Positions 331-6,386 of a DNA stretch of 11,758 bases are shown one piece after another. Within the stretch, counting starts at the first letter, position 1. Each line of letters opens with the position of its first letter. Made by a program: the position numbers and the translations under genes. Location of the stretch: IMG/VR virus record IMGVR_UViG_2690316233_000014. One strand, written 5' to 3'. A model generated the notes under the pieces. The model did no database searches. It was not told the DNA's origin and was given only the letters and a program-made list of their open reading frames with translations. This DNA is from a virus. Lineage: Duplodnaviria > Heunggongvirae > Uroviricota > Caudoviricetes.

Positions 331-702
331 ACTCTCCAGCTCCTGTATCAATCAGATAATTTCACGACGCTTTCCTGCTGATTGCCATCATCGACAGTCA
401 GACTCTTACGCAATCCCACCGCGTTGATTGCATGTTCTCGCCGTCTCAGTGCGATTTTGACGGCCTTACCTTTCACCCCATCAAATCAAAAGCCCTCACA
501 TCTTTTTCACGCTCAGCGTGAGAAATACAGCCATTCTGTTGTGTCGCTGCGACATCGTTCAGGGGATGCTATTTACCCCCTGAAACGCGGGCTGTTCCCC
601 CGTCACCTGCGCGCAGAAAAAACGCGTTTTTTTGTGCACGCACGGATCCCTGACGGATCCAGCCGCCACGCGGGCCGGAAGGGCAAAAAGTCGTTCAAAA
701 AA

Positions 703-730
703 ATTGTGCAAATTTGTGCACTATTGTGCA
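703..730. repeat. three direct repeats of (A/T)TTGTGCA phased at exactly 10 bp
   Basis: ATTGTGCA 703-710, TTTGTGCA 713-720, ATTGTGCA 723-730. One-helical-turn phasing suggests cooperative binding on one face of the DNA (iteron or centromere-like). Confidence 0.5.
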
Positions 731-737
731 TTGAAAT

Positions 738-760
738 AAACGCTCTGGAGGAGGGCGTTT
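738..760 (-). terminator. putative intrinsic terminator of the 135-aa gene
   Basis: Stem AAACGCTCT/AGGGCGTTT (9 bp including one G-U) with a 5-nt loop, directly after the TAA at 764-766 and followed on the - strand by AUUUCAAU. The + strand side is also U-rich, so it may act in both directions. Confidence 0.4.
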
Positions 761-763
761 TAC

Positions 764-1171
764 TTATCTTTTATAGCCTTGCCCCTTCCTGGCCAGCGCC
801 CTGATGGCCGGGCGTGCCAACACCATATTTTGGCAATGATGAATTGCCCGGCAAAATTCATCTCTACCCATTGGATGCTCAACTGGCAATGTTAAATACA
901 GGTTCCATGCGTCGCCTAAAAGTTGGGCTATCTTTTGTTCTTCAGATGTCAGCAAGCAAGCGGTATCCGTAAAATAATCATACTTTTCATGTATGTTATT
1001 TAACGGTTTTGTCTGTAGTGCAGCCTGAGCTATACGGTATGCCTGAAGCATACGGGCGTCGTTGATATCCATTCCGAACGGAATTTCTGATGATTGTGAC
1101 TCTGCATCTTCAAGCCTGGCAATTTCTTTACGTAAGAAGTATTTCAACTCTTGTTTCTGTTTTCTGTTCAT
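764..1171 (-). CDS. hypothetical protein, 135 aa
   Basis: ATG at 1171-1169 with AAGGA about 8 nt upstream, TAA at 764-766, and its own upstream and downstream hairpins. Translation is protein-like but I do not recognise a family. Confidence 0.6.
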   Translation of the reverse strand: MNRKQKQELKYFLRKEIARLEDAESQSSEIPFGMDINDARMLQAYRIAQAALQTKPLNNIHEKYDYFTDTACLLTSEEQKIAQLLGDAWNLYLTLPVEHPMGRDEFCRAIHHCQNMVLARPAIRALARKGQGYKR

Positions 1172-1240
1172 GCTTTTTTTCCTTTTTCTCTGTCAATGTG
1201 TTGCATTGTGTCCCCCTTGTTTATGTTCCCGGATTAAAGT

Positions 1241-1264
1241 CATCAGGGCGGATGCGCCCTGATG
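1241..1264 (-). terminator. putative intrinsic terminator after parR
   Basis: 10-bp GC-rich stem CATCAGGGCG/CGCCCTGATG with a 4-nt loop, starting 6 nt after the parR stop (1270-1272) and followed by ACUUUAAU on the - strand. Confidence 0.45.
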
Positions 1265-1269
1265 TTGTG

Positions 1270-1581
1270 TTATTCGGGAAATAACGCCCGGATATTTCCG
1301 GCCATCTGACTGGTTATCTGTGCGGTTGATACTGGCTGTGACGCGGGGCATTCTGTCCTGGTTTGTGTCACTGATAACGCCTCATCGTCAGCCCATGCAG
1401 CCAGTCGGTAAGCCTCTGCTGGATTCATTTTCAGAAGTGCCAGCCCGGCCAGAAAAGCCACGCGTTGGCCGCTTTTGCGGGCTTCTGGTGTAAGGCTGTC
1501 CAGCCAGGCGCATGCTTCGCTTTCGTTCTTGACGGCCGCAGGCTTCAGATAGAAACTTATCCGTCTGGTTGGTGTCGTCAT
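1270..1581 (-). CDS. parR: ParR-like partition adaptor / centromere-binding RHH protein, 103 aa
   Basis: Internal ATG at 1581-1579 preferred over the track start at 1716 (which overlaps parM by 130 nt); strong AAGGAG 7 nt upstream. Sits immediately downstream of parM. Translation MTTPTRRISFYLKP...LDSLTPEARKSG...LAGLAL...LFPE parallels plasmid R1 ParR as I recall it. Confidence 0.75.
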   Translation of the reverse strand: MTTPTRRISFYLKPAAVKNESEACAWLDSLTPEARKSGQRVAFLAGLALLKMNPAEAYRLAAWADDEALSVTQTRTECPASQPVSTAQITSQMAGNIRALFPE

Positions 1582-1585
1582 TGGT

Positions 1586-2545
1586 TTACTCCTTGTCCAT
1601 TGCGTACAGCCCATTAACCAGAGCAAACTGTGGCACCCCGTACGCGATGAAAGTCGCATTAACTCCGCAGGCTTCGCGGATAGCGGGTGCCACAATCTCC
1701 GCCCCGCCACCGACAACCATCACCCGACCGTAACCCGAAAAACCCGCCAGCGCGCGGATCACGCGTTGTTTCAGTGTTTCTTCCTTTTCACGAATAACCG
1801 CCATCAGGCTGGCGTAATGCGCGTCATTGTGGATGTGCTGGCGCAGCCAGGCTTCATCATGGCGATGTTCGATAATGGTATTGGCGATGTGGTGACTGGT
1901 GCGCATACCGTTAGTGGCCATCACCGACAGTACGGCATCGGCCATCAGAGAAACGCCTACGTGTGGATCGCAAAACACCTGGCTGATACCTGCCAGTTGC
2001 CCCTGAACCTTTGCCACATCCAGCGTGGTTCCGCCCAAATCCACAATCAGCAGGGATTCAAACGGACTCATGTCAGCCAGTGCCTTAAAGCCAGCCGGAA
2101 TGGATTCAGGCATAACCCGCACGTTACGGATAGTGAATGCTTCGCCGTTCTGGTACTCCACCGGGCGCATGACGTTCGCTTTTTTGCGGTTGATGTTGGC
2201 CATGTCCGGCTGTGCGTTTGTGTCGAAATACTCGCTCAGTGGCAGGGTGACAACCACATCCACCTCCTGTGGCGTGATGCCTGATTTGACCAGCGCGTGA
2301 TGAATGGCAATGACATTCACATCGCTGTACTGGTATTGCGTGTCGGTCGTCTGGACAAAGCGATCGCTGACCGGATCAAAACCATAGCGCACGCCATCAA
2401 GCATGTAGTTCGCGGGCTGCGTGCCACCGAACGGCGCAGACCATTCCGACTTGAAGCTGTTCGGGCTGATGGCGTTGCGGCGTTCGCCGTTCTCAGTCCA
2501 TGCCAGCTTGATGTTGGTGGAGCCGTCGTCGATACAAATTTTCAT
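1586..2545 (-). CDS. parM: ParM/StbA actin-like segregation ATPase, 319 aa
   Basis: ATG at 2545-2543 with AAGGA upstream, TAA at 1586-1588. N-terminus MKICIDDGSTNIKLAW (actin-fold phosphate-1 motif) plus SPNSF, YQYSDVNV, IHHAL, VMPESIPAG, IVDLGGTTLD and VVGGGAE blocks match plasmid R1 ParM closely as I recall it. Confidence 0.9.
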   Translation of the reverse strand: MKICIDDGSTNIKLAWTENGERRNAISPNSFKSEWSAPFGGTQPANYMLDGVRYGFDPVSDRFVQTTDTQYQYSDVNVIAIHHALVKSGITPQEVDVVVTLPLSEYFDTNAQPDMANINRKKANVMRPVEYQNGEAFTIRNVRVMPESIPAGFKALADMSPFESLLIVDLGGTTLDVAKVQGQLAGISQVFCDPHVGVSLMADAVLSVMATNGMRTSHHIANTIIEHRHDEAWLRQHIHNDAHYASLMAVIREKEETLKQRVIRALAGFSGYGRVMVVGGGAEIVAPAIREACGVNATFIAYGVPQFALVNGLYAMDKE

Positions 2546-2576
2546 GTCGCTTTTCCTTATGTTGATTAATTAATCG

Positions 2577-2615
2577 TTTACGGGATTCTGAAATCCCGTT
2601 TTTGCCTGTTTTGTG
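2577..2615 (+). repeat. hairpin repeat copy 1: TTTACGGGATT-CTGA-AATCCCGT followed by a T-rich tail
   Basis: 8-bp stem ACGGGATT/AATCCCGT (2580-2587 / 2592-2599), 4-nt loop, then TTTTTGCCTGTTTTGTG. Lies between the Rep stop (2622) and the parM start (2545). Terminator-like on the + strand, or a ParR-binding (parC-like) site. Confidence 0.5.
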
Positions 2616-2621
2616 CGCGCT

Positions 2622-5462
2622 TCATATATCGCTGCGCGTTTTTTGGTCATTTACGGGATTCGTGAGTCCCGTTTCTGTCTGTTTTTTGTTTCCGCTGGTC
2701 AGGCCACCCCGCAGCAGGTCTGCTTTGCGGCTGGCGCGTTCAGTGGTTTCACTGATTCTCTGTGCGTGCTCTGCGTCGCGGATGGCGCGCAGCATGTCAG
2801 AAAGCACGGTAACGGGTGTTTTCATGGTGTTCTGGTCCTGCTGAAGTGTGGATGCCAGGCGTGCGGCGGCTTCAGGGTCTGATGCCCCCAGCTGTGCCAG
2901 ATAGCTGGCGACCGGGTTATGGCGGATCTCCGTGCTGCTTACGCCATGATTACGGCTCAGGCGCTGCCAGAGCTGCGTGATTCGGCTGTCCGGGCGGGTA
3001 TCCGGTTTGCGTACAATTTCAAATCCCTGCGGTGCAATGATGCTGCCGTCAACGTACAGACTGCCGCCCCGTAACAGGTGCTGCATCTGTTGTTCACCGA
3101 TATGCAGGCCGAGAGATTCAGCAGACTCCCGCCATTCTTTAGCGAGTAATTCGTGGTTATCAGGCAAAGGCCGCTGCTGTTTGCGGCTCTGTGTCCAGCT
3201 CTGCATTTCATCACTGCTGTTTTTTGCCTGTTTGTCACGAAGCGAATGCATCAGCGCCCGGCGTTCGTGCCGTTTCAGTGAGCGCATCCATTCGTTCACT
3301 TCAACGCCGTCAGGGAGCTGCGGCCACGGTGCTGGCCGTTCTTCCGGCTGTTCTGTCCCGTTGTTGTCCGTTTCCTGTACACGGGGACAGTTATTGCCAC
3401 GAGTCCAAGGGGCGGCAGGGCCGCCCTGAAGGTCAAAACCATTTTCGCGGGCACTGTCTTCCGCTTCCGGTTTGCGTCTTACCAGCTTCCAGTTATCCGG
3501 ATGCGTGCACACACGGGAGGATTCCCCGATGAGTGGTGACCAGATCCCGTAAATCTGTACGCTCTGTTCGCCGTAATCGTTCAGCTCATCGGCGAGGTCG
3601 TAGGCGGTGCGAATCAGGTAGTCCTTGCGTGGAACAAGTACGCCGCCCTGTTTCTCTATGTAGGTGGCAAAACATCCGGCATCAGCGGCGGCAAGAACCG
3701 CATCCATTGCGTCATCCTTCAGCCGTTGCGGGCCTTCCGGGTTGCGTGCCATCTGGCTGGCAAGGCGGCGCAGTTCACGCCATACCTGGCGGGAGGGGAT
3801 GCCAAAGAACTGGAACTGGCGGACCCGGTGAAGGCGCGCCCAGCCGATGGCGCGTTCCACGCTCTCGGCCATTGATTTTCCGGTTTCGTGGTCAACGCGT
3901 GGCTTGCCCGTTTTCGGGTCGATGCCATCCACGGCACGGCTGTCCAGGTTTTTCCCGATGTAGGTGGCGATGTAGCTGGTCGGTGTGCCTTTTGAGCCGT
4001 CGACGTACTCCGCCTTAAAGCGTGGGGTAATATCATCACCCAGCTCGTGACGATCTTCCTGAATGGCAATATCGCGGGTGTGGGACACAATAGTGTCGAT
4101 TTCTTCCGGATGAGCAAAGACCATCATATGCCAGTGCACGGTGCCGTCATGGTGAGGCTCCACCGTGCGGATGCCATACCAGCGCAGGCCGTCGCGGTTC
4201 AGTTTCTTGCGGACCGCCGCAAAAAACGTGTTAACCAGGTAATCGCTGGAGTCGCGCATGGTGGCCCCGTTCCATTTGGGATTCGGATGACCGTTCTCTG
4301 TTGTGGCGTGGTATTTTGACGGGCAGGTGACAGTCAGAAACACCGCTTTGTCGCCACGGGCTTCGGCCAGAAGTTCCAGCCCCTTCATGGTGGCCATCAT
4401 TTCTGCCTTACGGTGAACCGGGTTACTTACTCCCGCGTAATACACTGTCTCGAGATCAATCGTGAACCCATCTTCGTTTTCCAGCATGAAACTTTTCAGG
4501 AAATCGCGTGTTTTCTCGCGCTGTGCGCGAAACTCGCTTAATGCGTCCTGGCTCAGATAGGGCGATGTTTTTCTGGAAACCAGACAGGCGGCGCGGAGTT
4601 GTTCTTCTCTCCACTCGCAACGTAACAGCCACAGTTTGCGTTTCCACCATTCCGCACAGGTCAGGCGAAGGATTGCGCCCGGCAGCAGCTCCGTGTCCGG
4701 TTCGTTCCTCCGGTCTTTATCTGTTGTCAGTGCGTCATAATGTGGAGGCATGATGTGCAGGTGTAACGCCATGCGGGCCAGCATCTGATACGCCTTCAGC
4801 GTTACATCCATGGTCAGTTCGCCATCGGTCGCGCCAAAGCCATCGCAGAGTTTTTCGAAGGTGCTGCTGAACATCGCCGCCGTCATGGTGGCCAGCGTCT
4901 GTATCTGGTGTTTGTTGAGCTGCGGCAGGTAAAGCAAATCGTCCAGGCGTTCGCGTCCGGCAAGGGAGCGATAACCAGGTGTCAGCCAGCGCCCGTCAGT
5001 GCGATCCAGACGTTCGAATATTTTGCGCAGGGTTCCGCGTGTATAGCGTTCCGCCTGCCAGCTCTTTTTGCCTTTCTGACGATCGGCTTCCTGCTTCTTG
5101 CGCAGGAAAGAGAGGTGGCGGCTCAGAGGTTCTCGCAGATAAACGGGAAGCGCCTTCAGTGTGGCAAAGGCACGGGCTACCGGGTCTTGTTCTGTTGCCC
5201 GGCGCTTACTGATGATGCTCTGTGCCAGCTTTTCACGCTGTCCGGCTTCCTCAAGGGATGCCATGAGTTTTTTACCCATGGCGGATTGTGCGAAAAAGGC
5301 TTCTTCCTTCGCTTCCTGTTCTTCCTGTGCCCTTTTGTCCGCCTCAAGGTAGCAACGGATGGCGCGTTGCAGGTCGGTTTCAGTTTCCTGCCTGCGCTCC
5401 GTAAATCTGGCCGGATCAATAGCTGGTCGTGGTTCATTCCAGCTCCATGCAAACGCACTCAT
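2622..5462 (-). CDS. rolling-circle replication initiator, HUH endonuclease of the P2 gpA / phiX174 A type, about 946 aa
   Basis: HUH motif VHWHMMVF (codons near 4128-4136) and paired active-site tyrosines in SYIATYIGK (YxxxY, near 3960-3976). No Walker A motif, so not a P4 alpha primase-helicase. ATG at 5462-5460 forms an ATGA overlap with the upstream stop; the track start at 5489 is GTG. Confidence 0.85.
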   Translation of the reverse strand: MSAFAWSWNEPRPAIDPARFTERRQETETDLQRAIRCYLEADKRAQEEQEAKEEAFFAQSAMGKKLMASLEEAGQREKLAQSIISKRRATEQDPVARAFATLKALPVYLREPLSRHLSFLRKKQEADRQKGKKSWQAERYTRGTLRKIFERLDRTDGRWLTPGYRSLAGRERLDDLLYLPQLNKHQIQTLATMTAAMFSSTFEKLCDGFGATDGELTMDVTLKAYQMLARMALHLHIMPPHYDALTTDKDRRNEPDTELLPGAILRLTCAEWWKRKLWLLRCEWREEQLRAACLVSRKTSPYLSQDALSEFRAQREKTRDFLKSFMLENEDGFTIDLETVYYAGVSNPVHRKAEMMATMKGLELLAEARGDKAVFLTVTCPSKYHATTENGHPNPKWNGATMRDSSDYLVNTFFAAVRKKLNRDGLRWYGIRTVEPHHDGTVHWHMMVFAHPEEIDTIVSHTRDIAIQEDRHELGDDITPRFKAEYVDGSKGTPTSYIATYIGKNLDSRAVDGIDPKTGKPRVDHETGKSMAESVERAIGWARLHRVRQFQFFGIPSRQVWRELRRLASQMARNPEGPQRLKDDAMDAVLAAADAGCFATYIEKQGGVLVPRKDYLIRTAYDLADELNDYGEQSVQIYGIWSPLIGESSRVCTHPDNWKLVRRKPEAEDSARENGFDLQGGPAAPWTRGNNCPRVQETDNNGTEQPEERPAPWPQLPDGVEVNEWMRSLKRHERRALMHSLRDKQAKNSSDEMQSWTQSRKQQRPLPDNHELLAKEWRESAESLGLHIGEQQMQHLLRGGSLYVDGSIIAPQGFEIVRKPDTRPDSRITQLWQRLSRNHGVSSTEIRHNPVASYLAQLGASDPEAAARLASTLQQDQNTMKTPVTVLSDMLRAIRDAEHAQRISETTERASRKADLLRGGLTSGNKKQTETGLTNPVNDQKTRSDI
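2651..2688 (+). repeat. hairpin repeat copy 2: TTTACGGGATT-CGTG-AGTCCCGT followed by a T-rich tail
   Basis: About 35 of 42 positions identical to copy 1 and 73 bp away. Stem ACGGGATT/AGTCCCGT with one G-U pair. Lies inside the last ~20 codons of the Rep ORF. Confidence 0.5.
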
Positions 5463-5848
5463 GGCTGGTATCCCGTCACGCGCTGCCACTCCTGCGAGAA
5501 GAGGGCGGAAAGGCGGTTAAATTCAGCGGTGTATTCACTCAGCGAGGCACACCCGCCAGCAGTGCGATGCGCCAGCATTGCTGCAAATACGGAGGCCGGG
5601 GAGTCGTAATACGCCAGCAGTGATTCGCCGTGCGGTGTCAGGCAGTGTAACGCCAGTCCGTGTGGTGTGAAATCCACGCGGTAGCAGTCGTCTACTGTGA
5701 AATAAAGGGTGTCTGCATTCTCCGGTTTTGTGGTGCGTGCTCTGTTGTCACGACCACGGATGTAGAGATCAAATAACCCCTGAAGAACGGGAGCCAGACG
5801 GGTGTCCTGTGTGCGCACCCATCTTGTGAAGTCATGAGCGTCAATCAT
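5459..5848 (-). CDS. hypothetical protein, 129 aa, translationally coupled to Rep
   Basis: ATG at 5848-5846, TGA at 5459-5461 overlapping the Rep ATG. Family not recognised. Confidence 0.6.
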   Translation of the reverse strand: MIDAHDFTRWVRTQDTRLAPVLQGLFDLYIRGRDNRARTTKPENADTLYFTVDDCYRVDFTPHGLALHCLTPHGESLLAYYDSPASVFAAMLAHRTAGGCASLSEYTAEFNRLSALFSQEWQRVTGYQP

Positions 5849-6194: not shown

Positions 6195-6386
6195 GAGTTG
6201 AGAATCTCGGGGTGGCGAGACGTACAGGGTTCTCAACACCGGAGAGCAAAGAATCCGGCCCGACCGAAGTCGGCCCCGTACGCCCCGCCATAATTCTGAC
6301 GCGAAAAAGACGTGGCAATACAGTACGCACAAAAAAACCGCTTGCGCGGTTATGCGCTTTGCTCTGTATCGGGTTGAGAATCCCGG
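6195..6386 (-). ncRNA. candidate cis-regulatory or small-RNA leader with three related boxes
   Basis: On the + strand, box A GAGTTGAGAATCTCGG (6195-6210) and box C GGGTTGAGAATCCCGG (6371-6386) are 14/16 identical. Box B AGGGTTCTCAACACCGG (6226-6242) is complementary to both over 10-12 bp. A GGCCGAC-UUCG-GUCGGCC hairpin (6257-6276, - strand RNA) and a terminator lie between them. No ORF with a plausible RBS. Confidence 0.4.

Follow-up and report, generated by a model that had tools for sequence, protein, structure and literature searches.

The 11,758-nt stretch of viral DNA analyzed here (Caudoviricetes; IMG/VR record IMGVR_UViG_2690316233_000014), referred to below as the window, carries two direct repeats where rep, the gene for a rolling-circle replication endonuclease, meets parM, the gene for an actin-like segregation ATPase. 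Their linkage to parM and parR, the recurrence of a twin-box pattern in four lineages, and the match between box type and the N-terminal type of ParR together suggest that the two repeats probably constitute a split parC, the cis-acting centromere and putative operator for the ParR adaptor of a prophage ParMRC system. A parC is to be expected in a ParMR system and is no novel type of element. ParMRC is a standard model of DNA segregation, and almost all work on it concerns plasmids.

Twin palindromic boxes upstream of parM

A repeat search found two copies of 42 nt that are 81% identical and start 73 bp apart; the spacing is that of the first-pass annotation, whose estimate of 38–39 bp for the repeat itself was slightly short. 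Copy 1 (2574–2615), the parM-proximal arm of the proposed parC, occupies the 76-nt gap between rep and parM and stands beside parM in all P88-like loci examined. Copy 2 (2647–2688), the distal arm, lies within the last ~22 codons of rep, which ends with a stop codon at 2622–2624. The arms enclose a 31-bp core (2616–2646) that contains this stop codon and is the most variable stretch of the region. Each copy centers on a palindrome. Palindrome 1 (2580–2599), ACGGGATT-CTGA-AATCCCGT, has a perfect 8-bp stem and a 4-nt loop; among relatives its GGGATT/AATCCC core is mostly kept, and the loop and outer pairs vary. Palindrome 2 (2653–2672), ACGGGATT-CGTG-AGTCCCGT, has the same 8+4+8 arrangement with one T·G pair (T2659/G2666); position 2666 is A in most relatives, which makes the palindrome perfect. 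The core GGG-N10-CCC boxes of palindromes 1 and 2 start 52 and 125 nt before the parM ATG, and the palindrome motif has just these two sites in the 11.7-kb window, compared with 0.07 expected by chance.

The hairpins and T-rich plus-strand tails described at first pass are both present. Folded as plus-strand RNA, copy 1 reaches -10.4 and copy 2 -10.2 kcal/mol (z = -2.55 and -2.41 against shuffled sequences), and both look terminator-like on that strand, with tails TTTTTGCCTG and TTCTGTCTGT, opposite to the local genes; every gene between about 116 and 9228 lies on the minus strand. Long-range pairing between the copies, seen in 141-nt folds, was dismissed as the automatic outcome of having two similar palindromes. 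Across the ~105-bp region A(n)C tracts recur at multiples of 10–11 bp.

Homologues of ParR and ParM were traced to their contigs and GGG-N10-CCC boxes were counted in the 250 nt before parM. Four lineages have exactly two boxes there, against a background of 0.26–0.72 boxes per kb, and in all four the boxes are 72–73 bp apart. Relative to the parM ATG they lie at -125 and -52 in the E. coli P88-like window, at -124 and -51 in the Hafnia locus L140 (Hafnia-1; ParR 75% identical), at -128 and -55 in the Hafnia locus L312 (Hafnia-2; ParM 62% identical), and at -131 and -59 in the Plesiomonas locus L146 (ParM 63% identical). The boxes thus persist where ParM is merely 60–63% identical and the flanking DNA no longer aligns; in Hafnia-2 an unrelated open reading frame (ORF) of 167 amino acids covers the distal box and part of the proximal one. 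The Hafnia-1 versions keep the hairpin and the T-rich tail. In Hafnia-2 and Plesiomonas the inner pairing is lost, leaving stems of 3–4 bp, loops of 10 nt and no T tract. Since the boxes of these two lineages lack both inner pairing and T tract, the conserved element is not the hairpin but a pair of inverted G/C triplets that are separated by about one helical turn and that occur twice, at a distance of seven turns.

A pattern derived from the E. coli element, CGGGA-N9-CCC, retrieves both Plesiomonas sites and one other from the 8-kb L146 locus, with 0.09 matches expected. The third box (L146 positions 6230–6246) lies inside the portal gene of the Plesiomonas prophage and could be either a chance match or an extra ParR site. 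A single scan of genome contigs with ParM returned just three near-identical loci. In one metagenome scan a loose twin-box pattern gave 120 loci, a single one of which, the P88-like L151, has a ParM; the others are chance matches in other DNA. The Plesiomonas-type box had 42 single matches in IMG/VR, none adjoining a ParM.

Linkage to parMR and nucleotide-level constraint

No GGG-N10-CCC boxes precede parM in the Serratia, Enterobacter, R1-type, pOXA-48-type, IncI or phage D6 loci. The ParR proteins of box-bearing loci share the N-terminal sequence TRR[IV]SFYL..AC..LD, whereas loci with an NRK[IC]SFY-type ParR (Serratia, Enterobacter and pOXA-48-type) bear ATTTTTCT-type repeats instead. Rep does not sort in this way: the box-less Serratia Rep is 48–53% identical to box-bearing Reps, and the Rep of one box-bearing P88-like locus, L075, is nearest to the box-less Enterobacter Rep. 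By these comparisons site type tracks the N-terminal type of ParR and not the relatedness of Rep.

The repeats also stay with parMR when the neighboring genes change. L075 begins to align with the window at 2687, on the outer margin of copy 2; both repeats are present and intergenic, and upstream of them lie a different gene-A-type (GPA) Rep, 31% identical to that of the window and 55% to the box-less Enterobacter Rep, and an extra ORF of 159 amino acids. Homology in L104 stops at 2689, where the upstream genes differ and an unrelated ORF of 145 amino acids precedes the repeats. The repeats accordingly accompany parMR behind three kinds of upstream gene. Because homology breaks at the outer edge of copy 2 in both loci while the upstream genes are swapped, the repeats belong to parMR and not to rep. 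The site shares with type II (ParMRC) centromeres a cis position immediately upstream of the parM-parR operon, repeated units in two arms (fewer and differently arranged than in plasmid R1), and inheritance with a cognate parMR whose ParR type matches the type of site.

Two relatives are rearranged at the junction itself. In L086 (IMGVR_UViG_2778261421_000003), a two-gene cassette at 4116–5088, encoding proteins of 118 and 135 amino acids, takes the place of parR and of parM except for its first ~50 nt; rep and both repeats are kept. Judged by eye, the cassette resembles an antitoxin/toxin pair. In L038 (IMGVR_UViG_2874920711_000009), a 2.7-kb block with five plus-strand ORFs (567–3272) stands in place of window positions 2607–3156, which removes copy 2 and the Rep C-terminus.

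Variation was analyzed in about 98 P88-like loci, collected from IMG/VR with the palindrome pattern, which yielded 67 distinct haplotypes over positions 2480–2800. In the Rep tail (2625–2688), 38, 38 and 41% of sites are variable at codon positions 1, 2 and 3. The corresponding values are 49, 29 and 59% in rep further upstream and 14, 18 and 41% in parM, the usual coding pattern. Within the region conservation is highest in the flank (0 of 6 sites variable) and the tail (1 of 16) of copy 2; in the 31-bp core 65% of sites vary and several alternative sequences occur. Copy 2 also persists in each of the contexts found. Within rep of the window its reading frame is a (TGLTNPV), in L145, which has a frameshifted Rep, it is c, and in Hafnia L140, where the Rep stop codon falls within the loop, it is b; the unrelated 145-residue protein of L104 reads copy 2 in frame b, and in L075 copy 2 is intergenic. 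The flat codon-position variation and this indifference to context establish that copy 2 is constrained as nucleic acid and not as protein.

As first annotated, copy 1 is intergenic and copy 2 overlaps the C-terminal codons of Rep. The accompanying proposal that the overlapping sequence serves two functions is at best weakly true: the Rep tail over copy 2 shows no protein-level constraint, so the overlap with the reading frame looks incidental. The alignment of homologues that had been suggested to decide whether these codons are held as protein or as hairpin supports neither, as the constraint is on the nucleotides and the hairpin is lost in two lineages. No compensatory base changes were found in the stems among the 67 haplotypes; the changes are single-sided, some fitting one strand and some the other. 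A functionless remnant of a local duplication would account for copies that are 81% identical and for the damaged copies of some relatives. It would leave unexplained why twin boxes recur at the same spacing and position at 60–63% ParM identity in unalignable surroundings, and why the copy 2 flank and tail are so well conserved; we consider such a remnant very unlikely.

A probable split parC and alternative roles of the repeats

The split-parC reading suggests how the site may work. Each arm carries a box of two inverted half-sites (AATCCCGT-like, GGG-N10-CCC), in which about one helical turn separates the inverted triplets; the two boxes are spaced by seven turns (73 bp). Ribbon-helix-helix dimers of ParR would bind the boxes and the phased A-tract flanks and bend or loop the ~105-bp region into a partition complex, which would capture the ends of ParM filaments through the conserved C-terminal tail of ParR; binding might also repress parMR. 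The outcome would be that extrachromosomal copies of the phage genome are moved or positioned. The hairpin shape and plus-strand T tract of the E. coli lineage would then be by-products of the inverted half-sites and A-rich flanks. Other parM loci offer parallels. Repeat clusters also precede parM in a locus of R1 type (arm spacing 83 bp), one of pOXA-48 type (73 bp) and phage D6 (85 bp), and the half-site AATCCCG resembles the R1-type iteron AAAACCC, in which CCC recurs every 11 bp.

Several observations weigh against a split parC. There are two boxes, fewer units than in the known parC sites compared here: R1 has ten 11-bp iterons and srpC has four 13-bp repeats. Some relatives have a weakened copy 1, ACAGGATT..AATCCCGC or, in Cronobacter L143, AAACCC. 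The N-terminal strand of ParR is invariant within the clade, whose homologues are 42–97% identical, so there is no covariation of protein and site to be read, and an AlphaFold2 model of the ParR monomer is poor (mean predicted local distance difference test score, pLDDT, of 55). A consensus scan predicted no sigma-70-like promoter on either strand between 2500 and 2720, and conservation is lowest in the core that separates the arms; for these two reasons the operator, or autoregulatory, half of the parC model is without support. Expression of parMR may come from read-through from the early operon. Visual inspection of the core and leader turned up weak promoter candidates, such as ATGACC-16-TATATG and ATTAAT, and none is conserved enough to be accepted. 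In the literature on P88, Xuanwuvirus and P2-like parC we found no study of this locus.

Tandem terminators that block antisense transcription into rep had been put forward at first pass. As Rho-independent terminators of plus-strand transcripts, the repeats would halt antisense or convergent transcription, such as read-through from the late portal/terminase operon, before it reaches rep. Their shape fits: in the window both copies match the terminator consensus, with an 8-bp stem containing four G-C pairs and 5–6 T in the next 8 nt, and Hafnia-1 likewise has a stable, G+C-containing hairpin followed directly by a U tract. Mapping from the P88 annotation puts the plus-strand end of the portal gene near position 47, and the late operon runs towards parR, so plus-strand transcription towards the repeats is conceivable. 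However, this is the nearest plus-strand gene end; no plus-strand transcription unit ends at the repeats or within about 2.5 kb upstream of them, and plus-strand hairpins at 738–760 and 1241–1264 intervene. Two independent terminators would not need the 16-nt tail and 6-nt leader that the copies share, the tail of copy 2 (UUUCUGUC) is a weak U tract, and stem variants among the 67 haplotypes disrupt pairs on either strand. In L312 and L146, moreover, the boxes stay put and the hairpin and T tract are gone. Termination is thus an unlikely primary role, and plus-strand terminator activity may be a lineage-specific side effect. An extended version of the parC model, which we regard as improbable, makes the E. 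coli and Hafnia-1 arms dual-purpose: duplex centromere and, in addition, plus-strand tandem terminator or ParR-bound roadblock that shields rep from convergent late transcription. The system would then, like AlpAC in CGP3, serve to position phage genomes that have been excised and replicate by rolling circle, and not to maintain a plasmid.

The repeats could instead act as minus-strand RNA hairpins in a rep-parM transcript, in mRNA processing or stability or in the control of parM translation. Folding is just as good for the minus-strand RNA (-10.7 and -9.0 kcal/mol; z = -3.6 and -3.2), and rep and parM are likely co-transcribed because no minus-strand terminator separates them. Variants point both ways: the common copy 1 variants G2582A and T2599C (plus-strand notation) still pair, as G·U, on the minus strand only, but the common copy 2 variant G2666 makes a C·A mismatch there. 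Compensatory double changes are again lacking, Hafnia-2 and Plesiomonas have lost the hairpins and kept boxes and spacing, and an Rfam search of window 2300–3000 (E ≤ 1) returned nothing. A role as RNA is therefore quite improbable.

The first-pass annotation also entertained a rolling-circle origin structure. In this account Rep would nick or bind the repeats, or they would start lagging-strand synthesis as a single-strand initiation hairpin; rolling-circle origins often have hairpins, and the P2 origin inside gene A is a precedent for an origin element within rep. The homologue of the P2 nick region (GCCGCGCC/TCGGAGTCCTGTCAATAACTGT) lies elsewhere, however, on the minus strand at 3388–3417, inside rep and about 750 bp from the repeats, which are therefore not the nick site. 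In alignments of both DNA and protein, GCCGCCCCTTGGACTCGTGGCAATAACTGT of the window falls opposite GCCGCGCCTCGGAGTCCTGTCAATAACTGT of P2, whose record gives the nick at 29892 in gene A, and this phage probably has its rolling-circle origin at 3388–3417. Nor do the boxes track Rep relatedness, as the Reps of L075 and Serratia illustrate, and two lineages have boxes without hairpin potential. An origin function at the repeats is consequently disfavored, and is the least probable of the roles considered.

Prophage context and known partition systems

The window is a region of a P88-like prophage (genus Xuanwuvirus, Peduoviridae, P2-like), 94–97% identical to phage P88 and its relatives, with genes for a helix-turn-helix repressor and an integrase at the opposite end of the window. 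The rep-parM junction, taken as the 191-bp stretch at 2530–2720, is present in about a quarter of complete E. coli genomes (1291 of 5426), among them UTI89 and O157:H7 strains, and all but two of its 1417 places in E. coli genomes (1415) are chromosomal. The prophage is thus common and integrated, yet carries a plasmid-type segregation pair. NZ_CP148288.1, a 34,461-bp record deposited as an E. coli plasmid, matches window 1500–5600 at 99.7% identity and may be an excised or circular phage genome. A P88-like locus of 98% identity, L005 (NZ_JBQPOM010000071.1), comes from an assembly titled Vagococcus sp., a Gram-positive label that probably reflects contamination or mislabelling.

The rep gene (5489–2622, minus strand) encodes a 955-residue P2 gene-A-type endonuclease (PF05840, E = 5e-132) that is 30% identical to P2 A. 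Its C-terminal ~144 residues (~812–955; window 2622–3050) have no match in P2-like phages outside Xuanwuvirus. parM (2545–1586, minus strand) matches the Pfam families StbA_N and ParM_N, with E = 1e-92 to the R1 ParM structure 1mwk. Its leader (2546–2573, minus strand) holds a conserved ATTAAT..CAAC..ATAAGGAAA block, which includes the Shine-Dalgarno sequence and is kept from E. coli to Hafnia and Plesiomonas. parR (1581–1270, minus strand) encodes the 103-residue centromere-binding adaptor (PF10784); its start was set at an internal ATG of the ORF 1270–1716, which gives the length in the P88 annotation. The protein is 35% identical to R1-type ParR over the N-terminal 55 residues. Across homologues (P0001–P0084; 42–97% overall identity) the N-terminal strand and the C-terminal tail (NIRALFPE) are invariant and the middle is hypervariable. 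In Hafnia L140 ParM is 94% but ParR merely 75% identical to its counterpart in the window, so the par module is itself a mosaic. The strong hairpin at 1241–1264, with a 10-bp stem, begins 6 nt past the parR stop codon and is likely the terminator of the par operon, possibly acting in both directions.

An integrating P2-like prophage of many E. coli genomes here carries a full parM-parR pair together with a candidate centromere. The defined candidate site makes function directly testable, be it stabilization of the excised circle, organization of lytic replication or incompatibility with IncF-type plasmids. With two palindromic boxes seven helical turns apart, the site is compact and could serve as a minimal substrate for studying the ParR partition complex.

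Intrinsic terminators resemble the repeats in the G+C-containing 8-bp stem, the 4-nt loop and the T-rich plus-strand tail; they differ in that here no plus-strand unit ends, two lineages have lost hairpin and T tract, and the copies share sequence beyond what termination needs. Of the partition sites studied in integrated elements, alpS and srpC come nearest to the present one. The alpS site of the AlpAC system in the Corynebacterium prophage CGP3 consists of 24 short TTAAnnG-type repeats (PMC4446434). There too an actin-like protein encoded by a prophage works with an adaptor, which binds repeats located upstream of the operon encoding it, and AlpAC acts on excised, replicating phage DNA; the repeats are far more numerous, the proteins are unrelated in sequence, and host and phage type differ. 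The srpC site of SXT/R391 integrative and conjugative elements has four 13-bp repeats, and SrpR binding and plasmid stabilization have been demonstrated experimentally (PMC4489591). Like the present site, srpC is centromere-like, lies upstream of a ParM-type gene in a normally chromosome-integrated element, and has few repeats, both direct and inverted (PMC4489591). In contrast, SrpR has no recognizable similarity to ParR, the repeat sequences are unrelated, and for the locus described here ParR binding is a prediction.

In its general plan the proposed site resembles the parC of R1 and IncF plasmids. Known parC sites may be split into two arms around a core (PMC5016525), and that of R1 has ten direct 11-bp iterons, in two sets of five, flanking a recognizable promoter (PMC5016525). 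The window has instead two 42-bp arms with one palindrome each and no predicted promoter; its distal arm is inside the upstream gene, and the replicon is an integrating P2-like prophage and not a plasmid. Both sites lie directly upstream of parM, with two arms around a core, A/C-rich helically phased units and recurring CCC triplets, and both accompany a close ParM and a homologous ParR of the PF10784 family.

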